Sequence record: MT446387.1
Source: Escherichia phage TH09
Direction: 5' to 3' (one strand)
DNA length: 64,000 bases
Shown one piece after another: positions 230 through 60,278 of the stretch. Made by a program: the position numbers and the translations under genes. Below the pieces are notes generated by a model. The model worked only from the letters and a program-made list of their open reading frames with translations, did not search any database and had not been told where the DNA came from. Each line of letters opens with the position of its first letter. Positions within the stretch are counted from its first letter, which is position 1.

Positions 230-1239
230 TGAAAACAGTAATGAAAAGCTATTTTGGTAGTCATCTTTATGGAACTTCTACCCCAGAATCTGATGTAGAT
301 TTTAAAGAAATCTTTGTTCCTCCTGCTCGCGATATTCTTATCGGAAATGTCAAAGAGCACATGAGTAAAAACACTAACAACACATCATCTAAAAACACTA
401 AAGATGATATTGACCATGAACTATACAGTCTTAAATATTTCTTTAAATTAGCAGCAGATGGTGAAACTGTAGCGTTGGATATGCTTCACACTCCACCTGA
501 ACTAGTGGTTAAATCTGATTTGCCTGATGTGTGGAAGTTTATTCAAGACAACCGTTCTCGTTTTTATACGACTAACATGAAATCCTATTTAGGATATGTC
601 CGCAAGCAAGCTTCTAAATACGGTGTCAAGGGTTCTCGTTTGGCTGCATTACGTGATGTATTGAAAGTAGTTAATCAAATCCCCGAGCAATGGGTTGATT
701 ACCAAGAAGACGGTTCCATTAAGCAGCGTCGCACTAAAGTTGAAGATATTAAGCATCGTCTTCCAGAAAACGAATTCTGTGAATGGGTGTTCCATAATCA
801 TGAGAAAACAGGTCCACAAACGTTCTACACTGTATTGGGTCGTAAATATCAGACAACGCTTTCTCTTATTGAGCTTAAGCAGTCTTTGAATAAACTTGAT
901 GCTGAATACGGTGAACGTGCTCGTAAGGCCGAAGCCAATGAAGGCATTGATTGGAAAGCACTAAGTCATGCTTGTCGTGGTGGACTCCAACTATTGGAAA
1001 TTTACAAAACTGGTGACTTGGTTTATCCACTCAAAGATGCTCCATTTATTCTCGACGTGAAGTTGGGTAAACATCCATTTAAAACGGTTCAAGAGTTTTT
1101 GGAAGATGTGGTCGATCAAGTAGAAGCAGCATCTACTGAAGCTTCTAAGAACGGTATGCCTAAAACAGTAGACATGAGTTTCTGGGATGACTTCCTTGAG
1201 AAGGTCTATCTTGAAAACCACCGAAGTTATTATAAATGA
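226..1239 (+). CDS. nucleotidyltransferase-fold protein (Pol-beta superfamily motif), function unknown
   Basis: 337 aa; N-terminal FGSHLYGTSTPESDVDF matches the GS-x(9-13)-DxD NTase signature; terminator follows. Confidence 0.6.
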   Translation: MMKTVMKSYFGSHLYGTSTPESDVDFKEIFVPPARDILIGNVKEHMSKNTNNTSSKNTKDDIDHELYSLKYFFKLAADGETVALDMLHTPPELVVKSDLPDVWKFIQDNRSRFYTTNMKSYLGYVRKQASKYGVKGSRLAALRDVLKVVNQIPEQWVDYQEDGSIKQRRTKVEDIKHRLPENEFCEWVFHNHEKTGPQTFYTVLGRKYQTTLSLIELKQSLNKLDAEYGERARKAEANEGIDWKALSHACRGGLQLLEIYKTGDLVYPLKDAPFILDVKLGKHPFKTVQEFLEDVVDQVEAASTEASKNGMPKTVDMSFWDDFLEKVYLENHRSYYK

Positions 1240-2685: not shown

Positions 2686-2988
2686 ATGTTATACTCAAAG
2701 GCTCGTGAAATTTACGAAACTAAAATTAAAGAAGCAGTATTTCAGTTCGCAACAACGATGCGATGGACAAATGATTGGGAATACTCCAAGAATCATAAGA
2801 AGCCCTTGGTGACAAGAAAGGCTCATATGTTAGTGTTAATAGACCGTGAGCAGATTAAAGCCCGAGAAGCCCTCCAGAATCATAAAAAGGCTGCCTTTGA
2901 ATGGTTTATGGATAACACTGCTCCTGAGACTAAGAAAGCAGTGAGTGCGTGGTTCAGTGGAAAAAATTGTGAAAGAAGTTTCTTTTAG
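2686..2988 (+). CDS. hypothetical protein
   Basis: Track ORF 2674-2988; GGAGG SD favours ATG at 2686. Confidence 0.45.
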   Translation: MLYSKAREIYETKIKEAVFQFATTMRWTNDWEYSKNHKKPLVTRKAHMLVLIDREQIKAREALQNHKKAAFEWFMDNTAPETKKAVSAWFSGKNCERSFF

Positions 2989-3030
2989 TTGTTTACAATA
3001 CCGTTCCTCTGTGGTACTATACAACTATCA
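2975..3030 (+). promoter_or_regulatory. T4-type early promoter
   Basis: GTTTACA 2991-2997, TGGTACTAT -10 region; near-identical to cassette at 56060-56112. Confidence 0.6.
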
Positions 3031-3048
3031 ACTACGGAGGAACACAAA

Positions 3049-3576
3049 ATGAACGCTAAAGATATTTTCAACCTGGTAAATTACAACGATGGTAAATTTA
3101 AATCAGAAGCACAAAGCAAGTTCTTTAATGACATCTCAATTGGAGGTGAAATCACTGTTGATGGAGGACAAATTTACAAATCCCGTTGGAATTGGATCGT
3201 TATTATTGACGAGATCGGTATTGTAGAAATTTACAAGAATACGAATAAAAATCGTACATTACACTGGTCTCGTGATACTAACGAACAGTACAAAAAGGAT
3301 AAAGCATCTAAATTATCTCGTGTAACTCAAGAAGATATTGAGTTCATCAAGAAAGATATTTTGATGTATGATAACTTAATTGCTGAAGAGCAAGCTGTTA
3401 TTGATAAATTTGACGAGATTAAAGCTTCTCGTGAAATTCCTGATTTTATGAAAGAATCAGTAAATGAACGATACAATCTCATTTCAGAGCGTATTGAAAC
3501 TTACAAAAAGCAAAGAGCTGAACGCCAGAACACTCTTCGGAAGTTTGAAGAACGGTTAAAGACGGTACTCGCATAA
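3049..3576 (+). CDS. hypothetical protein with C-terminal coiled coil
   Basis: Track ORF starts inside promoter; ACGGAGG SD places start at 3049; heptad-like C-terminus. Confidence 0.55.
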   Translation: MNAKDIFNLVNYNDGKFKSEAQSKFFNDISIGGEITVDGGQIYKSRWNWIVIIDEIGIVEIYKNTNKNRTLHWSRDTNEQYKKDKASKLSRVTQEDIEFIKKDILMYDNLIAEEQAVIDKFDEIKASREIPDFMKESVNERYNLISERIETYKKQRAERQNTLRKFEERLKTVLA

Positions 3577-3631
3577 CCGCTTTATACCAAGGATGGTATA
3601 ATGGTTCTAAGCCCTTTTAATTGAGATTATT

Positions 3632-4046: not shown

Positions 4047-4934
4047 ATGTCAGTAGTAATTAATAATGTCAATGCAGTAATTAAATCTTTAGTTAATAAA
4101 AAATTGAATGAATGGACTGTACTTCGTCGTGGAGAGCCAGATAAATTTTTTCATAGATTTAACCCAACTTTGGATTTGAATGTTATTGACAGAGATGTTC
4201 ATGCAGAAATTTTAGATAAGTTTAAAGTTGATATTGGATTTGGATTAGAAAAACATTTACAGCGAACAAACGGATCTGGAATGAGTTTATCTAATCGCAT
4301 TATGAAAGCACTTAATAAAATTGGAGCATTGTCTCGTATTAACGCGAGTGAAATCCTTCGCAATTATAATAAAGGATACGACCTTTATGGTCGACTAATG
4401 CCGAAATTATCATTTGACCAAATGATTGCGGATTTGTGGGAAAATCAACGACGATTATTAGCATTAGGCGCTCGATTAGCTAAAGGTCTAGATAAACAAA
4501 TGATTTTTAAGACCAATAATACAGAAGACCTTAAATGCTTTAAATTTAGTATTCGCGGAGATGATTATTACATCAGAGCTCGCTCTACAGATTATGTTAA
4601 TATGGGGCATCATCTCTGTTTAGCTTTTGAAGTTTTAAAAGAAGTCGGAACATTAGAATATTCATCTGGTGCAAAATGTCCAATTGGTTCAAGTTGTATT
4701 TTAATTTATCGCCCGGATGAATCCAGTTCAACTAAATTGCCTACAAAACCTGTACCAGTTCGTAGTAACGAAAAACATTCTGAACAAATTGATTATTTTA
4801 ATAAGCAAATTGAAGAGCTGAATATTTCTATTCAACAGTATGACGATGAAATTTTCAGACTATCTGGATTGAGTAGTAAAGCTAAATCTGAGCGTGAAAA
4901 ATTAATTAAAATTGTTGATTTACTTAAATCTTAA
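4047..4934 (+). CDS. hypothetical protein with C-terminal coiled coil
   Basis: GAGGAAA SD before ATG 4047; C-terminal 45 aa heptad-like. Confidence 0.6.
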   Translation: MSVVINNVNAVIKSLVNKKLNEWTVLRRGEPDKFFHRFNPTLDLNVIDRDVHAEILDKFKVDIGFGLEKHLQRTNGSGMSLSNRIMKALNKIGALSRINASEILRNYNKGYDLYGRLMPKLSFDQMIADLWENQRRLLALGARLAKGLDKQMIFKTNNTEDLKCFKFSIRGDDYYIRARSTDYVNMGHHLCLAFEVLKEVGTLEYSSGAKCPIGSSCILIYRPDESSSTKLPTKPVPVRSNEKHSEQIDYFNKQIEELNISIQQYDDEIFRLSGLSSKAKSEREKLIKIVDLLKS

Positions 4935-7079: not shown

Positions 7080-8009
7080 ATGAAAACTCGTAAACATTAC
7101 ATTGATTATTTTGACAGTCTTATTACTAAACATCGTAATTATCAGATCGGACACAGAGCAGTAATCAATAATATTCTTCGTGATTTCCTTCAATATGTTG
7201 GCCAGGAAAATCATATCTGTAAAGATACTCAAAACGCTTATTCTCATTCGTTAGGTAATTTGCTTGAATGGTTTAAACGTTCTCGTATGTTATCTTCTAC
7301 TGTAGCTCACGATAACATTAAAAACTTTATGAAGCCGAGCTTTATTAAATCTGAGACATCTATAACCGATTTGGTTGAATTTACTATTGTTAACGATGTT
7401 AAAAAGACTCATTTGGCTGATTGGTTATCTACCATTCCTGAAACTAAATTTGCTGATAAATTTGCTTGTCAATTCAATGACCAAGTGAATATGCTTTTTA
7501 AGCATGCTCGCAAACTGTTTACCGCGGGTGATGACCGTACAAATACAGTTCATGTTAAGGACTGGGTTATTGCTGATGAAGTAACACACAAGCCAGGTGG
7601 TTCATCAGTATTAATTAATATCCAGGTTCCTTATTATTACTCACGTAATCTCGGCACCATGACAGCTAAAGAAATTAATAAGCACAACAAAACTATTCGT
7701 TCGTTGTCTTATAAACTCCGCATGATGTTAAAAATTATGGACGTAGTGGAAATGTATGACGAAACCGAAGATAATGGTTCAATGTTATACAGTTCACGCA
7801 TTCTAATTAAACTGAAGAACCCTAATACATATAAGACAGTTGTAAAAGAGCCTAAAGTAGAAAAGGTTGATAATCTGAGTGAAGAACGTGAATATCTCAA
7901 TGCCCGTTTGATTGAAGTTGAAGCCCAAATTGCAGAACACACCAAATTGTTAAAAGCTCTTAATGCAAAAGCAAATGGTTTACGTAATGCTATTGAGGTA
8001 TTGAAATGA
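7080..8009 (+). CDS. hypothetical protein with C-terminal coiled coil
   Basis: 309 aa; coiled-coil tail. Confidence 0.6.
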   Translation: MKTRKHYIDYFDSLITKHRNYQIGHRAVINNILRDFLQYVGQENHICKDTQNAYSHSLGNLLEWFKRSRMLSSTVAHDNIKNFMKPSFIKSETSITDLVEFTIVNDVKKTHLADWLSTIPETKFADKFACQFNDQVNMLFKHARKLFTAGDDRTNTVHVKDWVIADEVTHKPGGSSVLINIQVPYYYSRNLGTMTAKEINKHNKTIRSLSYKLRMMLKIMDVVEMYDETEDNGSMLYSSRILIKLKNPNTYKTVVKEPKVEKVDNLSEEREYLNARLIEVEAQIAEHTKLLKALNAKANGLRNAIEVLK

Positions 8010-13690: not shown

Positions 13691-13744
13691 TACATTCTGT
13701 ATATTACCATTCTAAGCTATCGTTCCCTTCTTATCATTCCCTAA

Positions 13745-13800
13745 AATAATTTTCACAAAGTTGTTTACAACAAGTTCAAACCGTGGTATTATTAACATAT
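13745..13800 (+). promoter_or_regulatory. T4-type early promoter
   Basis: GTTTACA 13763-13769, TGGTATTAT -10. Confidence 0.55.
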
Positions 13801-13822
13801 GAATTGCCTTTGAGGATTTGAT

Positions 13823-14005
13823 ATGGTTGTGGTTGATAAAGAAATTAAAAAGGGACAATATTATTTTATTAATGGTAATGTTGTTCGTGTTACTTACGTA
13901 AATGGTTATGATGTTTATTATCTTATACTTAAGTTACATAAACACATGATTTGTGATCGTGCTGTATTTAGTTCAGTTGCTAAGGAAATTAAACTCCATG
14001 GGTAA
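13823..14005 (+). CDS. hypothetical protein
   Basis: 60 aa ORF. Confidence 0.4.
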   Translation: MVVVDKEIKKGQYYFINGNVVRVTYVNGYDVYYLILKLHKHMICDRAVFSSVAKEIKLHG

Positions 14006-25000: not shown

Positions 25001-27697
25001 ATGAAAGAATTTTATATCTCTATTGAAACAGTCGGAAATAACATTGTTGAGCGTTATATTGATGAAAATGGAAATGAACGTACTCGTGAAGTAGAATATC
25101 TTCCAACTATGTTTAGGCATTGTAAGGAAGAGTCAAAGTACAAAGACATCTATGGTAAAAACTGCGCTCCTCAAAAATTTCCATCAATGAAAGATGCACG
25201 AGACTGGATGAAGCGAATGGAAGACATCGGTCTCGAAGCTCTTGGTATGAACGATTTTAAACTTGCTTATATCAGTGATACATATGGTTCAGAAATTGTT
25301 TATGACCGAAAATTTGTTCGTGTAGCTAACTGTGACATTGAGGTTACTGGTGATAAATTTCCTGACCCAATGAAAGCAGAATATGAAATTGATGCTATCA
25401 CTCATTATGATTCAATTGACGATCGTTTTTACGTCTTTGATTTGTTGAATTCAATGTACGGTTCAGTATCAAAATGGGATGCAAAGTTAGCTGCTAAGCT
25501 TGACTGTGAAGGTGGTGATGAAGTTCCTCAAGAAATTCTTGACCGAGTAATTTATATGCCATTTGATAATGAGCGTGATATGCTCATGGAATATATCAAT
25601 CTTTGGGAACAGAAACGACCTGCTATTTTTACTGGTTGGAATATTGAGGGATTTGACGTTCCGTATATCATGAACCGTGTTAAAATGGTTCTCGGTGAAC
25701 GCAGTATGAAACGTTTCTCTCCAATCGGTCGAGTAAAATCTAAACTTATCCAAAATATGTACGGTAGCAAAGAAATTTATTCTATTGATGGCGTATCTAT
25801 TCTTGATTATTTAGATTTGTACAAGAAATTCGCTTTTACTAATTTGCCGTCATTCTCTTTGGAATCAGTTGCTCAGCATGAAACCAAAAAAGGTAAATTA
25901 CCATACGACGGTCCTATTAATAAACTTCGTGAGACTAATCATCAACGATACATTAGTTATAACATCATTGACGTAGAATCAGTTCAAGCAATTGATAAAA
26001 TTCGCGGGTTTATCGATCTAGTTTTAAGTATGTCTTATTACGCTAAAATGCCTTTTTCCGGTGTAATGAGTCCTATTAAAACTTGGGATGCTATTATTTT
26101 TAACTCATTGAAAGGTGAACATAAGGTTATTCCTCAACAAGGTTCGCACGTTAAACAAAGTTTTCCGGGTGCATTTGTATTTGAACCTAAACCAATTGCT
26201 CGTCGATATATTATGAGTTTTGACTTGACGTCTCTGTATCCGAGCATTATTCGTCAGGTTAACATTAGTCCTGAGACTATTCGTGGTCAGTTTAAAGTTC
26301 ATCCAATTCATGAATATATCGCAGGAACAGCTCCTAAACCGAGTGATGAATATTCTTGTTCTCCGAATGGATGGATGTATGATAAGCATCAAGAAGGTAT
26401 CATTCCAAAGGAAATCGCTAAAGTATTTTTCCAGCGTAAAGATTGGAAAAAGAAAATGTTCGCTGAAGAAATGAATGCCGAAGCTATTAAAAAGATTATT
26501 ATGAAAGGCGCAGGGTCCTGTTCAACTAAACCTGAAGTTGAACGATATGTTAAGTTCAGTGATGATTTCTTAAATGAATTATCGAATTACACCGAATCTG
26601 TTCTTAATAATTTGATCGAAGAGTGTGAAAAAGCAGCTACACTTGCTAACACAAATCAGCTGAACCGTAAAATTCTTATTAACAGTCTTTATGGTGCTCT
26701 TGGTAATATTCATTTCCGTTACTATGATTTGCGAAATGCTACTGCTATCACAATTTTCGGCCAAGTTGGTATTCAGTGGATTGCTCGTAAAATTAATGAA
26801 TATCTGAATAAAGTATGCGGAACTAATGATGAAGATTTCATTGCAGCAGGTGATACTGATTCGGTATATGTTTGTGTAGATAAAGTTATTGAAAAAGTTG
26901 GTCTTGACCGATTCAAAGAGCAGAACGATTTAGTTGAATTCATGAATCAGTTCGGTAAGAAAAAGATGGAACCTATGATTGATGTTGCATATCGTGAGTT
27001 ATGTGATTATATGAATAACCGCGAGCATCTGATGCATATGGACCGTGAAGCTATTTCTTGCCCTCCACTTGGTTCAAAGGGCGTTGGTGGATTTTGGAAA
27101 GCGAAAAAGCGCTATGCTCTGAACGTATATGATATGGAAGATAAGCGATTTGCTGAACCGCATCTAAAAATCATGGGTATGGAAACTCAGCAGAGTTCAA
27201 CGCCTAAAGCGGTCCAAGAAGCTCTTGAAGAAAGTATTCGTCGTATTCTTCAAGAAGGCGAAGAGTCTGTTCAAGAATATTATAAGAACTTTGAGAAAGA
27301 ATATCGTCAACTTGACTATAAAGTTATTGCTGAAGTAAAAACTGCAAACGATATAGCGAAATATGATGATAAAGGTTGGCCAGGATTTAAATGCCCGTTC
27401 CATATTCGTGGTGTGCTAACTTATCGTCGAGCTGTTAACGGTTTAGGTGTAGCTCCAATTTTGGATGGAAATAAAGTAATGGTTCTTCCATTGCGTGAAG
27501 GAAATCCATTTGGTGACAAGTGCATTGCTTGGCCGTCGGGCACAGAACTTCCAAAAGAAATTCGTTCTGACGTATTGTCTTGGATTGACTACTCAACTTT
27601 GTTCCAAAAATCGTTTGTTAAACCGCTTGCAGGCATGTGTGAATCGGCTGGTATGGACTATGAAGAAAAAGCTTCGTTAGACTTCCTGTTTGGCTGA
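25001..27697 (+). CDS. 43: DNA polymerase gp43
   Basis: 898 aa; family B polymerase and exonuclease motifs; recognised as T4 gp43. Confidence 0.97.
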   Translation: MKEFYISIETVGNNIVERYIDENGNERTREVEYLPTMFRHCKEESKYKDIYGKNCAPQKFPSMKDARDWMKRMEDIGLEALGMNDFKLAYISDTYGSEIVYDRKFVRVANCDIEVTGDKFPDPMKAEYEIDAITHYDSIDDRFYVFDLLNSMYGSVSKWDAKLAAKLDCEGGDEVPQEILDRVIYMPFDNERDMLMEYINLWEQKRPAIFTGWNIEGFDVPYIMNRVKMVLGERSMKRFSPIGRVKSKLIQNMYGSKEIYSIDGVSILDYLDLYKKFAFTNLPSFSLESVAQHETKKGKLPYDGPINKLRETNHQRYISYNIIDVESVQAIDKIRGFIDLVLSMSYYAKMPFSGVMSPIKTWDAIIFNSLKGEHKVIPQQGSHVKQSFPGAFVFEPKPIARRYIMSFDLTSLYPSIIRQVNISPETIRGQFKVHPIHEYIAGTAPKPSDEYSCSPNGWMYDKHQEGIIPKEIAKVFFQRKDWKKKMFAEEMNAEAIKKIIMKGAGSCSTKPEVERYVKFSDDFLNELSNYTESVLNNLIEECEKAATLANTNQLNRKILINSLYGALGNIHFRYYDLRNATAITIFGQVGIQWIARKINEYLNKVCGTNDEDFIAAGDTDSVYVCVDKVIEKVGLDRFKEQNDLVEFMNQFGKKKMEPMIDVAYRELCDYMNNREHLMHMDREAISCPPLGSKGVGGFWKAKKRYALNVYDMEDKRFAEPHLKIMGMETQQSSTPKAVQEALEESIRRILQEGEESVQEYYKNFEKEYRQLDYKVIAEVKTANDIAKYDDKGWPGFKCPFHIRGVLTYRRAVNGLGVAPILDGNKVMVLPLREGNPFGDKCIAWPSGTELPKEIRSDVLSWIDYSTLFQKSFVKPLAGMCESAGMDYEEKASLDFLFG

Positions 27698-27709
27698 TAG
27701 AATAAATCT

Positions 27710-27732
27710 AGGGACCTCCGGGTCCCTTTTTC
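27710..27732 (+). terminator. rho-independent terminator
   Basis: GGGACC-tccg-GGTCCC plus TTTTT. Confidence 0.6.
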
Positions 27733-27794
27733 ATACAAGTAATATAAATCTATACTTATGAAAAACAGATGATTCTGGACCTTTAGAATTCCCT

Positions 27795-27850
27795 AAAAAA
27801 TTTTCACAAAACTGTTTACAAGACTGTTCTTCCATGGTACTATACAACTA
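27795..27850 (+). promoter_or_regulatory. T4-type early promoter
   Basis: GTTTACA 27814-27820, TGGTACTATA -10. Confidence 0.6.
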
Positions 27851-27880
27851 TCAACTATTGATACAGATTTGGAGAATAAA

Positions 27881-28117
27881 ATGAAAATTGTTATGGGATG
27901 CTTAGCAGTTTGTTTAGTTGCATTAGCAGCAGTTCCATTTGTTAGTGTTGAAAATGATACTCAACCTGTGATTGAATCTAGCACCGTTATTCACACTAAT
28001 GGTAAAATATCAGTTAAAATTGATGATAATCTTCATGTGAATACAAATGGATCTTTAGGTGTGCAAATGGGTAATACCTGCATAAGCACTACTGGAGTAA
28101 TTACTACTTGCATTTGA
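27881..28117 (+). CDS. secreted small protein (signal peptide)
   Basis: 78 aa from ATG 27881; hydrophobic N-terminal leader. Confidence 0.5.
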   Translation: MKIVMGCLAVCLVALAAVPFVSVENDTQPVIESSTVIHTNGKISVKIDDNLHVNTNGSLGVQMGNTCISTTGVITTCI

Positions 28118-28127
28118 GGAAATTATT

Positions 28128-28508
28128 ATGAAAATCGCTATTTTGGTTATTGCATTAGGTCTTACTGGTTGTGTAGCTCAAGGACCGGTAGTAAATCAGT
28201 CTGATGTAGGAAAAATTGTAAACTGTTCAAGCAAATTTTATAATCCTAATGTCAAGTGTTATAAAGAAGCTCCAAAACAGACAGTAGAACAAATGCAGGC
28301 GAATTTTGACGAAGCTATTCGTCCAGATGAATCTGCTCAAGCATATCGTAATTCGGATGTAATTACACGCGAAGAAAAAATTGAAAACTACTGCGCCGAG
28401 CTTTGGGCTAATTGGGCTAATAATTACCAATGGCGTACTGGTAAAAATGCTCCGATGGAGTATGTAGTGAATTCTTATAATTCATGTGTAAAAAATTTGA
28501 CTAAGTGA
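28128..28508 (+). CDS. putative lipoprotein
   Basis: 126 aa; signal peptide with lipobox LTGC. Confidence 0.55.
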   Translation: MKIAILVIALGLTGCVAQGPVVNQSDVGKIVNCSSKFYNPNVKCYKEAPKQTVEQMQANFDEAIRPDESAQAYRNSDVITREEKIENYCAELWANWANNYQWRTGKNAPMEYVVNSYNSCVKNLTK

Positions 28509-28515
28509 GGAAAAC

Positions 28516-28767
28516 ATGGAAACTTTAGTAGCAGGTTCAATTTTTATGGTTTTAGTTTCAGGTGTGTTGGCTATTATTATATACATGCTTCCATGGTTTA
28601 TCGCCTTGATGCGTGGGTCAAAATCGACAGTAGGAATCTTTTTCACATCTTTACTGTTTAACTGGTCAATTATTGGTTGGTTTATTACATTTATTTGGTC
28701 AATTGCGGGTGAAACTAAAAAGTCTGCACAGCCAAATCAGGTAATTATCATCAGAGAGAAGGAATGA
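28516..28767 (+). CDS. imm: superinfection immunity protein Imm
   Basis: 83 aa, two TM segments, directly upstream of gene 42. Confidence 0.65.
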   Translation: METLVAGSIFMVLVSGVLAIIIYMLPWFIALMRGSKSTVGIFFTSLLFNWSIIGWFITFIWSIAGETKKSAQPNQVIIIREKE

Positions 28768-28913
28768 AAAGCAAAATTATAACAGTGTTGCTTTTAATCT
28801 TGATGATTATAATAAGTATATACTATAGTGTAACGGTTCCTCTTATGATTCCAACTATTATTTTAGGTTGGAGCTTATTACTGTTACAAGTTAAATATGA
28901 ATGTATCAATTGA
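28764..28913 (+). CDS. small membrane protein
   Basis: 49-codon hydrophobic ORF; ATGA overlap with imm stop. Confidence 0.35.
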   Translation: MKSKIITVLLLILMIIISIYYSVTVPLMIPTIILGWSLLLLQVKYECIN

Positions 28914-28920
28914 GGTTTAA

Positions 28921-29661
28921 ATGATTAGTGACTCTATGACAGTTGAAGAAATCCGTCTTCATTTGGGGCTTGCATTAAAAGAAAAAGATTTCGTAGTTGA
29001 TAAAACTGGTGTTAAAACTATTGAAATTATTGGCGCATCATTTATAGCAGATGAACCGTTTATTTTTGGCGCTCTTAATGATGAATACATTCAGCGTGAA
29101 CTTGAATGGTATAAATCTAAGAGCTTGTTTGTTAAAGATATTCCAGGTGAAACACCAAAGATTTGGCAGCAGGTAGCATCTTCTAAAGGCGAAATTAACT
29201 CGAATTACGGTTGGGCTATTTGGTCAGAAGATAACTATGCCCAGTATGATATGTGTTTAGCTGAACTTGGTCAAAATCCTGATTCTCGACGTGGTATCAT
29301 GATTTATACTCGTCCATCTATGCAGTTTGACTATAATAAAGATGGTATGTCAGATTTCATGTGTACGAATACAGTACAGTACCTGATTCGTGATAAGAAA
29401 GTCAATGCAGTAGTAAGCATGCGCTCAAATGATGTGGTCTTCGGATTCCGTAATGATTATGCATGGCAAAAATACGTATTAGATAAATTAGTATCTGATT
29501 TGAATGCCGGCGATTCAACTCGTCAGTATAAAGCAGGTTCTATTATATGGAATGTTGGAAGTCTTCATGTATATTCTCGTCATTTTTACTTGGTTGATCA
29601 TTGGTGGAATACTGGCGAAACTCATATTGTGAAAAAAGACTATAAAGGTGAGTGGAAATGA
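28921..29661 (+). CDS. 42: dCMP hydroxymethylase gp42
   Basis: 246 aa; recognised as T4 gp42. Confidence 0.95.
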   Translation: MISDSMTVEEIRLHLGLALKEKDFVVDKTGVKTIEIIGASFIADEPFIFGALNDEYIQRELEWYKSKSLFVKDIPGETPKIWQQVASSKGEINSNYGWAIWSEDNYAQYDMCLAELGQNPDSRRGIMIYTRPSMQFDYNKDGMSDFMCTNTVQYLIRDKKVNAVVSMRSNDVVFGFRNDYAWQKYVLDKLVSDLNAGDSTRQYKAGSIIWNVGSLHVYSRHFYLVDHWWNTGETHIVKKDYKGEWK

Positions 29662-30500
29662 TTCAATTCGTAATTCCGAGCTATCAGCGTGTTGGGGCAG
29701 TTTCTGCCCTTGATATGTTTCCGACTGATTATGAACCACATATTGTAGTGCGTGAACATGAAGAAAAAGCTTATCATGACGCTTATGGGTCTAGAGCTAA
29801 AATTATAGCTATTCCTGATGATGTAAACGGAATTGCCGGTACTCGTAAAGCAATTACTGATATGTATGCAGGTCAACGAATTTGGATGATTGACGATGAT
29901 ACTACTATTCGTATGAGTTCAATGCGAAAAAGAGATGATCGTCGTTGTGTGGATAAAGTCAATCAATTAACCCGTGAACAGTTCTATGAATTGATTCAAT
30001 ACGTTGAAGATGCTATGGATTGCGGGTATTATCACGGTCATGCTCGTCTACCTATTTTTAAAATTACTTCATCTTGGGGTAATTATCGTGAAAATTCATA
30101 TGGATTCACGAATACATGGTATGACCTCGGAAAACTTACGACAGAACAAATTGGGTATGGAAAAATTGATTTGTGCGAAGATATGTATGCATTTCTCAAT
30201 TTAATTAATCAAGGTTATCCGCATTTGGCCTTGTTCAAATATCTGGTTGTATCTGGAAAAGCACAAGCTCCTGGCGGGTGCAGTTCAATTCGCAGTAATT
30301 CTAAACATAATAGAGCGCTTGAGCAGATCAATAGAGAGTTTCCAGAGCAAGCTCGTTGGAAAACTTCTAATATTGAAAAACGAAAATCGTTGGGTGAAGA
30401 AGACGAGCCATTAAAGGTTCTTCGTATGTGTGTTTCACGTAAAGAAAAATCAGAAGCATTTCATAAGTTTAATGCTATTCATCCAATAGCAGTTGATTAA
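29658..30500 (+). CDS. putative DNA glycosyltransferase at the beta-gt locus (not T4 beta-gt type)
   Basis: 280 aa from ATG 29658; DxD-like WMIDDDTT; sits between 42 and uvsX. Confidence 0.55.
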   Translation: MIQFVIPSYQRVGAVSALDMFPTDYEPHIVVREHEEKAYHDAYGSRAKIIAIPDDVNGIAGTRKAITDMYAGQRIWMIDDDTTIRMSSMRKRDDRRCVDKVNQLTREQFYELIQYVEDAMDCGYYHGHARLPIFKITSSWGNYRENSYGFTNTWYDLGKLTTEQIGYGKIDLCEDMYAFLNLINQGYPHLALFKYLVVSGKAQAPGGCSSIRSNSKHNRALEQINREFPEQARWKTSNIEKRKSLGEEDEPLKVLRMCVSRKEKSEAFHKFNAIHPIAVD

Positions 30501-47356: not shown

Positions 47357-47384
47357 ATTTGCATAAAGTTTAAAATTTTTTCAT

Positions 47385-47425
47385 AAAACTATATACATCA
47401 GTAGTTGATTATGGTACTATATCAA
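47385..47425 (+). promoter_or_regulatory. possible early promoter
   Basis: TGGTACTAT -10 at 47412-47420 but poor -35. Confidence 0.35.
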
Positions 47426-47463
47426 TATCAACTACTGATACAGAAAATAACTTGGAGAATAAA

Positions 47464-47733
47464 ATGGAAAACTTAATTATCATCGAGCAATCTTTTAACG
47501 ATTATGGTATGGCTTACGGTTATCGTGCGATAATGGAAGATTCTCGTGGATGTGTTATCGATATTGCTGAATGTAAAGATTTACTGCAGCTTTTGAAGAT
47601 TGTTCGTAAAAATTGGGATTGTGAAAATATTAAAGTTCGAGTTGTTACAGAAGAAGAAACTGTTTTTCATGATGTAAAATTCGCTAAAGGTGCTGCTACT
47701 CTTCTGAAACGTATCGCTCCAATGTTTAATTAA
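47464..47733 (+). CDS. hypothetical protein
   Basis: 89 aa from ATG 47464 (GGAGAATAAA SD). Confidence 0.5.
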   Translation: MENLIIIEQSFNDYGMAYGYRAIMEDSRGCVIDIAECKDLLQLLKIVRKNWDCENIKVRVVTEEETVFHDVKFAKGAATLLKRIAPMFN

Positions 47734-54775: not shown

Positions 54776-55333
54776 ATGCAGAAAACGAATCCGGGTTTAC
54801 AGAGACTATTTCAGATTCCGACATTTACCCTATCGAACAATGACTTGACTAGTGAAATGAAGGTCAAAATTGCTGATACAGCAAGATACTCTTTAAAACA
54901 AAATCCTAATCAGGATAAAGCAGAAGTCATCGAAAGATGCCGTATCGCTGTGTATGCAGAGTTTTTTGTAGCAGATTGGCTGAGCGGGTATGTTAACAAA
55001 GGCCAAGAGGATGTTAATGACCCGTATACATACGCATGGGATGTATTGGCGCATCCAAGATATTGCGGGCTTCGTGTAGAAGTTAAGACACACCAAACTG
55101 ACTCACGTTGGATTTCGGTAACAACTGGATGCAGCGGAGAATATCCATACGGTTCTGGAATAAATCTAGGGCCCATTCTGAATCACCAAGTCGCTGACTG
55201 TATAATTATATTCAACACTAAAGAAATTCATCCAGGTGTCATCCAATACACTCCGAAGTTCATCGGTGATAGAGAAGACCTTCGTAAAGTTGTAAGAAAA
55301 AGCAACTACAACGGATGGTATCTTTCCATTTAA
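54776..55333 (+). CDS. denB: endonuclease IV DenB
   Basis: 185 aa; size and position match T4 denB. Confidence 0.8.
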   Translation: MQKTNPGLQRLFQIPTFTLSNNDLTSEMKVKIADTARYSLKQNPNQDKAEVIERCRIAVYAEFFVADWLSGYVNKGQEDVNDPYTYAWDVLAHPRYCGLRVEVKTHQTDSRWISVTTGCSGEYPYGSGINLGPILNHQVADCIIIFNTKEIHPGVIQYTPKFIGDREDLRKVVRKSNYNGWYLSI

Positions 55334-55334
55334 A

Positions 55335-55388
55335 AATTTTCACAAAACGGTTTACATACCACAAGGACTGTGGTACTATACAACTATC
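55335..55388 (+). promoter_or_regulatory. T4-type early promoter
   Basis: GTTTACA 55350-55356, TGTGGTACTATA -10. Confidence 0.6.
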
Positions 55389-55413
55389 AACTGATACGGA
55401 TTTGGAGAATAAA

Positions 55414-55620
55414 ATGTTTACTACAGCTGAATTAAAACGAGCAAAAGCTAAGAAAGGGCAAGGAAAATATAAAGCTGAATTAGTTAAAGAACTTCAGTTT
55501 GCTGAGGCTGAATTGAATTCAATGATTATTCAAAATGCTCCAGAAACTGAAATTGCTCTTAAGCGTATTGCGAATAAGTGTCTTCGTGATGCAATCGTCG
55601 ATCTTTTAGCGGATTATTGA
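55414..55620 (+). CDS. hypothetical protein
   Basis: 68 aa from ATG 55414 (GGAGAATAAA SD). Confidence 0.5.
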   Translation: MFTTAELKRAKAKKGQGKYKAELVKELQFAEAELNSMIIQNAPETEIALKRIANKCLRDAIVDLLADY

Positions 55621-55972: not shown

Positions 55973-56067
55973 AAATTTTGAATTCTGTACTTATTGCTTG
56001 TGCATGGTGGGTTGCGCAAGTTTCAGCGGTAGTAGTTGGTATTCACATTTATTACGAATATTTTTAA
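55969..56067 (+). CDS. tiny hydrophobic ORF
   Basis: 32 codons, single TM-like segment. Confidence 0.3.
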   Translation: MKILNSVLIACAWWVAQVSAVVVGIHIYYEYF

Positions 56068-56112
56068 AAAAGTTGTTTACAAGACTGTTCCTCTGTGGTA
56101 CTATTACCCTAT
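56060..56112 (+). promoter_or_regulatory. T4-type early promoter
   Basis: GTTTACA 56075-56081, TGTGGTACTATTA -10; cassette similar to 2975-3051. Confidence 0.6.
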
Positions 56113-56132
56113 CAACTACGGAGGAACAGAAA

Positions 56133-56246
56133 ATGAAAAAGATTATTAAAGCTATATGGAATGTAGTTATAATACTAATAGTTTTGAGTATATTCCCAAT
56201 CGTTTTAATGATTGATGTATTAAACGCTTACTTTGGATTTATGTGA
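56133..56246 (+). CDS. small membrane protein
   Basis: 37 aa from ATG 56133 (ACGGAGG SD). Confidence 0.4.
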   Translation: MKKIIKAIWNVVIILIVLSIFPIVLMIDVLNAYFGFM

Positions 56247-59520: not shown

Positions 59521-59548
59521 AGGGAGAGCCAAGGCTCTCCCTTTTTAT
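59521..59548 (+). terminator. rho-independent terminator
   Basis: GGGAGAGCC-aa-GGCTCTCCC plus TTTTT. Confidence 0.65.
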
Positions 59549-59554
59549 TTTAAA

Positions 59555-59608
59555 ATTTTTTTCACAAAACGGTTTACAACCAAAGCATACTGTGGTACTA
59601 TACAACTA
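59555..59608 (+). promoter_or_regulatory. T4-type early promoter
   Basis: GTTTACA 59572-59578, TGTGGTACTATA -10. Confidence 0.6.
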
Positions 59609-59642
59609 TCAACTGCTGATACAGAATTACGGAGATTAGAAA

Positions 59643-60278
59643 ATGTCTAAAGTAACTTACATCATCAAAGCTTCTAACGATGTTCTGAATGAAAAAACTG
59701 CTGCGATTTTAATTACCATTGCTAAGAAAGATTTCATTACAGCTGCAGAAGTTCGTGAGGTGCATCCAGATTTAGGTAACGCAGTAGTTAATAGTAATAT
59801 TGGTGTATTGATTAAAAAGGGCCTGGTAGAGAAATCTGGTGATGGATTAATCATTACTGGTGAAGCTCAGGATATTATTTCAAACGCAGCAACTTTATAC
59901 GCACAGGAAAATGCTCCGGAACTGCTGAAAAAACGAGCAACTCGTAAATCTCGTGAGATTACTTCTGATATGGAAGAAGATAAAGACTTCATGTTAAAAC
60001 TTTTAGATGAAAATGGATTTGTTCTTAAAAAGGTTGAAACTTATCGCAGTAACTATCTCGCTATTTTAGAAAAACGCACTCACGGAATTCGTAATTTTGA
60101 AATTAACAACAATGGAAATATGCGAATTTTTGGATACAAAATGATGGAACATCATATTCAGAAATTTACTGACATCGGTATGTCATGCAAAATCGCTAAA
60201 AATGGTAATGTGTATCTTGACATTAAACGCTCGGCAGAAAACATTGAAGCTGTAATCACCGTAGCATCTGAACTGTGA
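59643..60278 (+). CDS. motA: middle-transcription activator MotA
   Basis: 211 aa; recognised as T4 MotA. Confidence 0.95.
   Translation: MSKVTYIIKASNDVLNEKTAAILITIAKKDFITAAEVREVHPDLGNAVVNSNIGVLIKKGLVEKSGDGLIITGEAQDIISNAATLYAQENAPELLKKRATRKSREITSDMEEDKDFMLKLLDENGFVLKKVETYRSNYLAILEKRTHGIRNFEINNNGNMRIFGYKMMEHHIQKFTDIGMSCKIAKNGNVYLDIKRSAENIEAVITVASEL

Follow-up and report, generated by a model that had tools for sequence, protein, structure and literature searches.

A T-even imm locus in Escherichia phage TH09 with an optional ORFan and a probable accessory to Imm

Introduction

Between the genes for DNA polymerase (gene 43) and dCMP hydroxymethylase (gene 42), Escherichia phage TH09 (MT446387.1) carries four small ORFs, referred to here as ORF-A, imm.1, imm and ORF-D, and the question that they raise is whether all four act together in superinfection exclusion or at the host envelope, or whether exclusion is a matter for imm and its immediate neighbour. 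A preliminary description of the same DNA had taken T4 to have only imm and one small ORF at this position, and had proposed the secreted-protein and lipoprotein genes of TH09 as extra genes with additional roles in exclusion or envelope remodelling. We analysed a stretch of 64 000 nucleotides of the TH09 genome (the window), and our preferred reading, to which we assign a probability of about 75%, is that the locus is the standard imm locus of the T-even phages (Tequatrovirus) together with one common, optional ORFan, ORF-A, and that Imm.1 is most likely an accessory to Imm. The locus is essentially already known, and ORF-A is common and has been deposited before as a hypothetical gene; what is added here is modest, namely the linkage between imm.1 and imm, the description of a polymorphic slot ahead of imm.1, and the observation that the T4 reference lacks the 49-residue gene.

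Gene order and comparison with T4

The window belongs to a Tequatrovirus: the region 27650-28950 has the same sequence as Escherichia phage JLBYU31 (OK272473) throughout (100% identity), and its matches in 515 phage records are for the most part 95-99% identical. The four ORFs lie between genes 43 and 42 at the coordinates given in the preliminary description, all on the plus strand, and are listed in Table 1 with the neighbouring features. In the order of expression that we propose, gene 43 would end in the hairpin, the early promoter and leader would then drive the four small envelope-directed proteins, and transcription would run on into gene 42; beyond the glucosyltransferase gene lie uvsX, gene 40 and gene 41. 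No paralogues of ORF-A, Imm.1, Imm or ORF-D were found elsewhere within the 64-kb window, and a search of the literature found no functional study of imm.1, ORF-A or ORF-D. The JLBYU31 record annotates ORF-A, imm.1 and imm and leaves the 49-residue ORF unannotated; its label for imm.1, 'putative iduronate sulfatase', is supported by none of our searches.

Table 1. Features of the imm locus of phage TH09 and its surroundings, numbered from the first nucleotide of the window
Feature	Position	Strand	Description
regA	24554-24922
gene 43	25001-27697		DNA polymerase
Hairpin	27710-27727	+	GC-rich with T run, terminator-like; just 3' of the gene 43 stop; 7 pairs, 5 of them G-C (terminator scan)
Early promoter and leader cassette	27788-27880	+	T-even type (promoter scan)
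-35 box	27815-27820	+	TTTACA; 17-nt spacer to -10
Extended -10 box	27838-27843	+	TG-G-TACTAT
SD	27871-27874	+	GGAG; six nt 5' of the ORF-A ATG
ORF-A	27881-28117	+	78 aa; ATG start
imm.1	28128-28508	+	126 aa; DUF5481; UniProt P18057
imm	28516-28767	+	83 aa; PF14373
ORF-D	28764-28913	+	49 aa; phrog_3610
gene 42	28921-29661	+	dCMP hydroxymethylase; downstream boundary; coordinates and annotation the same in JLBYU31 and T4
Glucosyltransferase gene	29652-30500		beta-glucosyl-HMC-alpha-glucosyltransferase, T2/T6-type

The imm locus of T4 (NC_000866 / AF158101) has the flanking genes, the hairpin, the early promoter and the leader in common with the window. It differs in having no ORF-A, the window carrying a 247-bp insertion between the SD and the imm.1 ATG; in the product of imm.1, shortened to 125 residues by a 1-bp insertion at the end of the gene; and on the 3' side of gene 42, where T4 has b-gt and segA and the window has its T2/T6-type glucosyltransferase gene. 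The same 1-bp insertion opens a 94-residue extended imm frame in T4, and the other Tequatrovirus loci compared all lack this frame. The view that T4 has only imm and one small ORF here is thus correct for the T4 annotation, which gives imm.1 and imm, but it passes over the 49-residue ORF, which is intact in T4 yet unannotated. Similarly, of the two genes regarded as extra, ORF-A is indeed absent from T4 and T6, but the lipoprotein gene is T4 imm.1 itself, with 99% identity. In gene content, one of the comparisons chosen beforehand as those on which the proposal of extra genes should stand or fall, three of the four genes match T4 and only ORF-A differs. Extending the comparison, imm.1, imm and ORF-D are present in both T2 and T6, and ORF-A is missing from T6 and replaced by an unrelated gene in T2.

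Coding capacity of the four ORFs

The four ORFs together cover 1016 of the 1033 nucleotides of the interval, all on one strand. In 2000 shuffles that preserved the dinucleotide composition, ORF coverage had a mean of 76 nucleotides and a maximum of 650, so that none (0/2000) reached the observed value. The frames are open in all of the Tequatrovirus loci with which they were compared (eight loci besides the window for ORF-A and 13 for each of the other three), and all of the indels are in frame, ORF-A occurring in length variants of 234, 240 and 255 nucleotides. The pN/pS values, which were obtained from a small sample of related sequences and are indicative only, were 0.044 for both imm.1 and imm, 0.40 for ORF-A and 0.35 for ORF-D.

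The values for ORF-A and ORF-D are around eight times those of imm and imm.1, both ORFs are short, and searches of Pfam and NCBIfam gave no family for either; ORF-D, in addition, is left unannotated in T4, T2, T6 and many other records, and in every case shares bases with the stop codon of the gene upstream. Such features would suit a reading in which one or both are non-coding, either as chance ORFs or, in the case of ORF-D, as a leader frame translated only to bring ribosomes on to gene 42. We consider this very unlikely, however, since both frames are open at every locus examined, the length changes of ORF-A keep the frame, and no shuffle came near the observed coverage. The ATG of ORF-A also follows a canonical early leader and a good, optimally spaced SD; the motif P.MIPT...W...LQ.K[YF].C[FI]N of ORF-D is kept over five genera despite diverged DNA; and an Rfam search of the region gave no relevant family match.

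The polymorphic slot upstream of imm.1

A base-by-base alignment with T4 showed that, relative to T4 and T6, ORF-A is a clean 247-bp indel (27881-28127) that carries ATGAAAAT at both of its edges, and the leader and SD of T4 and T6 therefore join imm.1 directly. The slot is likewise empty in RB55 and in three further loci (L021, L023 and L024), and, among 501 records with a T4-type imm.1, ORF-A is present in roughly two-thirds and absent from about one-third. Other occupants were also found: in T2, the slot holds an unrelated ORF of 83 residues with no signal peptide, a gene type that is present in 31 Tequatrovirus records, and in a metagenomic relative (L025) it holds a 70-residue gene of the Phage_FRD3 family. 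In Shigella phage CT01 the slot is scrambled, containing a truncated copy of imm.1, a fragment of ORF-A and a second leader. We interpret ORF-A as an optional ORFan cassette; the slot that holds it, with the leader and SD on one side and the imm.1 ATG on the other, would be prone to recombination, and the deletion in T4 and T6 may be a simple case of microhomology slippage.

The promoter and leader ahead of this slot consist of an A/T-rich upstream tract, a conserved leader and then the SD. This element of about 90 bp is a dispersed repeat, with at least seven further copies in the 64-kb window (eight copies were aligned). The hairpin 5' of it is kept in T4, T6 and the metagenomic relatives, and in phage DalCa it carries the annotation of a terminator. 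A 37-38-residue ORF that runs across the promoter in T4 and in sutha is broken in the window, and we judged it to be spurious.

The arrangement recalls the PeSLs, composite early-promoter/stem-loop elements of T4-type phages that precede variable ORFans and through which these ORFans are proposed to be inserted and deleted (Arbiol et al. 2010, PMC2839356); PeSL ORFan cassettes are also the subject of a later paper (Comeau et al. 2014, PMC4122927). As in those elements, the unit found directly 5' of a variable ORFan pairs a stem-loop with a strong early promoter that has an A/T-rich tract, and it recurs around the genome; the edge of the ORF-A indel, like the reported crossovers, falls 3' of the -10 box and 5' of the ATG. 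There are two differences: the stem-loop lies about 90 bp 5' of the -35 box, and ORF-A is not followed by a second PeSL, only the 8-bp ATGAAAAT repeat being present there. The locus has the one-sided form of the element, with the hairpin and repeated early promoter 5' of the variable ORFan, and not the form in which PeSLs on either side would let the ORFan be cut out as a mini-circle, as no second promoter or hairpin was found in the 10-nucleotide gap between ORF-A and imm.1.

The product of ORF-A

Rule-based inspection of the N-terminus of the ORF-A product found a lysine at position 2, a hydrophobic stretch within residues 1-25 (residues 3-15) and an A14-L15-A16 site, with a very short c-region. 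The product is predicted to consist of a signal peptide (residues 1 to about 16, the cleavage being a rule-based prediction) and a beta-rich domain of about 60 residues; the AF2 model, which is of low confidence (pLDDT 52.7), has one helix and six short strands, and the protein contains Cys67 and Cys77. We also considered ORF-A as a lipoprotein and rejected this for the window, whose allele does not match the lipobox pattern. Some other alleles have in-frame duplications of seven residues within the signal peptide, one of which creates an LAAC lipobox.

ORF-A matches phrog_4189 (4e-30) and is present in 325 phage records, in each of which it is named a hypothetical protein. The family is a small one, with only 14 clusters at 90% identity among 5.8 billion proteins, all from T4-like phages, and a sequence search of the PDB gave only chance-level matches (E > 0.2), among them a spike and a fibre protein. 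The product is probably periplasmic, and nothing ties it to exclusion; it is probably a dispensable, niche-specific, small secreted beta-rich protein.

These results bear on the proposal that the four proteins act jointly, as a single coordinated module, in exclusion or envelope remodelling, to which the two supposedly extra genes would add further exclusion activities. The common strand, the early promoter, the tight spacing and the translational coupling are all consistent with such a module, as is the prediction that all four products are envelope proteins. Nevertheless, we find the proposal unlikely. T4 and T6 show normal superinfection exclusion, and both lack ORF-A, as do about one-third of the records with a T4-type imm.1. 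A role for ORF-A in exclusion or envelope remodelling is weakened because the gene is optional and because elsewhere its slot holds genes of the T2 or FRD3 type, which are unrelated and lack a signal peptide.

Imm and Imm.1

The identification of the third ORF as a homologue of Imm was upheld: it matched Pfam Imm_superinfect (PF14373) with 58.2 bits (cutoff 27.9; 7.7e-16) and phrog_1039, and 82 of its 83 residues are identical to those of T4 Imm. Imm resides in the inner membrane, where it blocks the DNA translocation of a superinfecting phage by binding that phage's tape measure protein, gp29, and plasmid-expressed Imm alone excludes T4 (bioRxiv 10.64898/2026.03.06.709160). Given the near-identity of the two proteins, Imm of the window would be expected to exclude superinfecting T-even phages through gp29. 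That Imm alone suffices against T4 also counts against a single module of all four proteins.

The product of imm.1 matched Pfam DUF5481 over the whole profile (1-103 of 103) with 239.2 bits (cutoff 27), and it is 98-99% identical to the Imm.1 proteins of T2, T4 and T6. The criteria for a lipoprotein were basic residues in the n-region, hydrophobic ones in the h-region and a cysteine at positions 15-35 within a lipobox of the form [LVI][ASTVI][GAS]C, and Imm.1 shows all three; the segment MKIAILVIALGLTGC fits the PROSITE PS51257-like lipobox pattern with Cys15, and the LTGC lipobox noted in the preliminary description was recovered as this pattern match. The corresponding lipobox of T4 Imm.1 is LAGC. 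In E. coli, lipoproteins without Asp at position +2 go to the outer membrane, and the +2 residue of Imm.1 is Val. By these rules, from which the sorting is a prediction, Imm.1 is probably a lipoprotein processed by Sec, Lgt and LspA and sorted to the outer membrane, with its domain facing the periplasm. Of the four further cysteines in the mature domain, Cys33 and Cys44 are lost jointly in the Mosigvirus-type homologue and Cys89 and Cys120 are invariant, a pattern that suggests disulfides 33-44 and 89-120. Two divergent members of the family (P0019 and P0020) have no lipobox cysteine and instead have an ordinary signal peptide with an AHA cleavage site, and the constant feature of the family is therefore its location in the periplasm rather than the lipid anchor.

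The Imm.1 family is tiny. Out of 1.84 billion cluster representatives (50% identity), profile searching retrieved just six proteins, all of the same family, and word-indexed searches returned three and six clusters. The search of PDB sequences for remote homologues gave no match. The AF2 model has a mean pLDDT of 62, with only the four C-terminal helices moderately confident; Foldseek with this model found nothing below E = 4 in the PDB and only the protein's own family in BFVD. The lipoproteins found at the same locus in Dhakavirus, Winklervirus and Kanagawavirus share the motif GTGLxYxRxxNQCGxNC, and comparison of Imm.1 with them by hhalign gave a probability of 97.5% with the signal peptides included and 69.6% without them; pairwise BLAST between the two groups was not significant, and we leave their kinship unproven.

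The most constant property of imm.1 is its position. It lies immediately 5' of imm in all six of the divergent lineages that we checked (the T4 type, Mosigvirus and four more at 33-55% identity), with a gap of 7 to 61 nucleotides, the gap in the window being 7. In the Mosigvirus PhAPEC2, the imm.1-imm pair lies between dmd and sp, and the adjacent matches in CAU_ECP01 agree. The converse dependence is weaker, with imm counted in 1001 phage records against 656 for imm.1, which indicates that Imm works without Imm.1; in the Dhakavirus MX01, for example, imm and ORF-D are present and the DUF5481 gene is absent. T4 Imm.1 is early at both the RNA and the protein level (PMC9697503, supplements). Among these genes, imm.1 is the strongest candidate for an added role in exclusion, given that it was next to imm in every lineage checked, is under strong purifying selection and, in T4, is expressed early. 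Judged by synteny, Imm.1 is most likely a periplasmic accessory to Imm-mediated exclusion, lineage-specific and dispensable for the core activity of Imm, although common descent and tight linkage, rather than a common function, could also explain the adjacency. If Imm.1 does assist Imm, then superinfection exclusion in the T-even phages has an overlooked periplasmic component, at a time when the mechanism of Imm is only now being resolved.

The association with imm, and that of the pair with sp, a second exclusion gene, in Mosigvirus, is also what might be expected of the single four-protein module discussed above. The T4 Spackle protein (Sp), the product of sp, is a periplasmic inhibitor of the gp5 lysozyme. 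Spackle resembles Imm.1 in being an early, small, Sec-exported periplasmic protein, it acts in exclusion, and its gene directly follows imm.1-imm in Mosigvirus; it differs in that its similarity to the Imm.1 family is confined to the signal peptide. We therefore rejected kinship between the two proteins, as the similarity detected by hhalign comprised a 19-residue signal peptide only and Spackle was absent from the Foldseek matches.

A different role for a lipoprotein at this position would be receptor masking of the kind known for Llp of T5 and Cor, in which Imm.1 would bind the phage's own outer-membrane receptor, block adsorption and protect the progeny. The lack of Asp at +2 and the probable outer-membrane location of the predicted lipoprotein are compatible with this, as is its early expression in T4. 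The receptors of the three phages differ, however, being FadL and OmpF for T2, OmpC and LPS for T4, and Tsx for T6, and Imm.1 is near-identical in all three; by this indirect test, the protein does not follow receptor specificity, and receptor masking is therefore unlikely. The two family members without a lipobox cysteine show, further, that membrane anchoring is not essential, and neither Foldseek nor sequence searches of the PDB gave a significant match or an Llp-like or Cor-like fold. We regard this role as highly improbable, even with a precedent in Llp, a small phage lipoprotein that acts in exclusion (PMC9586334), and we retain the reading of Imm.1 as an accessory to Imm.

ORF-D

The product of ORF-D is very hydrophobic, and its start codon overlaps the imm stop codon (ATGA). 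It matched phrog_3610 over the full profile (8.4e-26), homologues are present in 747 phage records from at least five genera, and the ORF is intact in T2, T6 and T4, the last with two amino acid changes. The motif Y[YW]..xP.MIPT..[GA]W...LQ.K[YF].C[FI]N is kept in Tequatrovirus, Dhakavirus, Mosigvirus, Winklervirus and Kanagawavirus, and this conservation across genera favours a conserved peptide over a mere translated leader. The ATGA overlap with the upstream stop codon was present in all four of the genera in which the junction was read (Tequatrovirus, Dhakavirus, Mosigvirus and Winklervirus).

The upstream gene is not always imm. In Mosigvirus, Winklervirus and Kanagawavirus, ORF-D lies in the interval between genes 43 and 42 behind a gene for arabinose-5-phosphate isomerase, and imm is elsewhere or absent; conversely, the metagenomic relatives L023 and L024 retain imm.1 and imm and lack ORF-D. 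The separation of ORF-D from imm.1 and imm in Mosigvirus, and its loss from these two relatives, again argue against a single module of four proteins. ORF-A and ORF-D have each been gained, lost or separated from imm independently, and ORF-D appears to be a conserved, translationally coupled membrane micro-protein of the Tevenvirinae whose distribution is partly independent of imm.

A more speculative extension of these results, which we put forward tentatively and think rather unlikely as a whole, is that imm.1 and imm form a two-compartment exclusion module, in which a periplasmic lipoprotein and an inner-membrane protein would intercept the tail tip or the tape measure protein of the incoming phage. 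The slot ahead of imm.1, with its ORF-A, T2-type or FRD3-type gene, would in that case serve as a cassette site by which T-even strains could take up further early functions, aimed at competitors or at the envelope of the host, and ORF-D would be a separate, unrecognized micro-protein of the Tevenvirinae.

The gene for this 49-residue protein is conserved and widely unannotated, and it should enter the T4 reference annotation. RB55 is a record that does annotate ORF-D, which belongs to the RB69ORF054c type, with the note "42.1".

The polymorphic slot between gene 43 and imm.1

The site between the early leader 3' of gene 43 and the start codon of imm.1, occupied in TH09 by ORF-A, the 78-aa predicted signal-peptide protein, holds in a metagenome contig a Phage_FRD3-family gene, which makes a third unrelated cassette type at this slot. 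In Shigella phage CT01 (OK018184) the interval between genes 43 and 42 is scrambled; a copy of imm.1 truncated to 38 codons lies 3' of the first leader, and is followed by a fragment of ORF-A fused to a second copy of the leader and then by the full imm.1, an arrangement that looks like a recombination scar at the slot. Further copies of the early promoter and leader were found in the window, sharing a consensus of approximately 90 bp that matches the cassette ahead of ORF-A and in which an A/T tract is followed by GTTTACA, TGGTACTATACAACTATCAAC and then GGAGAATAAAATG. These copies are PeSL-like dispersed repeats, and could be substrates for recombination.

ORF-A itself varies in its signal-peptide region, where some alleles (the homologous proteins P0005, P0011 and P0012, and comparison locus L006) carry an in-frame tandem duplication of the LAVCLVA-coding stretch. 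Because the duplication creates a lipobox in one of these alleles, replication slippage may switch ORF-A between secreted and lipid-anchored forms.

Features and their coordinates in the window and the comparison loci
Feature	Sequence	Coordinates	Strand	Remarks
Further early promoter + leader copies	Window	~1253-1363, 2960-3070, 13720-13830, 47360-47470, 55314-55424, 56044-56154, 59541-59651		Consensus match
LAVCLVA-encoding stretch of ORF-A	Window	27890-27935
imm.1	Window	28128-28508
1-bp insertion, imm.1 3' end	T4 (L001)	~4625-4640		Window 28495-28516
TAGT-family glycosyltransferase	Window	29652-30500		282 aa; overlaps gene 42 end
Phage_FRD3-family gene	SRR30535852_365571 (L025)	450-662		70 aa; slot, gene 43 to imm.1
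Different lipoprotein, 43-42 interval	MX01 (L014)	3101-3601
Different lipoprotein, 43-42 interval	CBH8 (L013)	1414-1827
Different lipoprotein, 43-42 interval	Kosakonia phage 305 (L012)	1301-1837
RB69ORF054c-type ORF	PhAPEC2 (L015)	7517-7660	minus	Annotated length 36 aa

Reading frames, relatives and names of the neighbouring genes

At its 3' end, imm.1 of T4 carries a 1-bp insertion, which sets the length of its product at 125 aa and opens an N-terminally extended imm frame of 94 aa, the form on which cryo-EM of Imm was carried out (2026 preprint, bioRxiv 10.64898/2026.03.06.709160). The extended frame is closed in the window, in T2, T6 and RB55, and in every other Tequatrovirus locus compared, which supports the start that gives the 83-aa protein.

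The lipoproteins encoded between genes 43 and 42 in MX01, CBH8 and phage 305, which belong to other Tevenvirinae genera, are 137-178 aa long and have in common the motif GTGLxYxRxxNQCGxNC. Their alignment with Imm.1 by hhalign, at a probability of 97.5% with the signal peptides and 69.6% without them, suggests that they may be distant relatives of Imm.1.

Several public names in this region are misleading: imm.1 is called 'iduronate sulfatase' in RefSeq T4 and JLBYU31, 'immunity protein' is applied to imm.1 or the 49-aa ORF preceding gene 42 in many records, and the slot gene of T2 appears in its record as 'tail tape measure protein'. Pfam, NCBIfam and PHROGs gave no support for any of these assignments. 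The homologue of the 49-aa ORF in PhAPEC2 is probably 47 aa long; the start codon of this longer frame and the stop codon of the arabinose-5-phosphate isomerase gene share the sequence ATGA, an overlap that other genera show too.

Downstream of gene 42, b-gt and segA of T4 are absent from TH09, and the glycosyltransferase gene found instead encodes an enzyme of the beta-glucosyl-HMC-alpha-glucosyltransferase type of T2 and T6; this gene content points to DNA glucosylation that is probably of the T2/T6 type.
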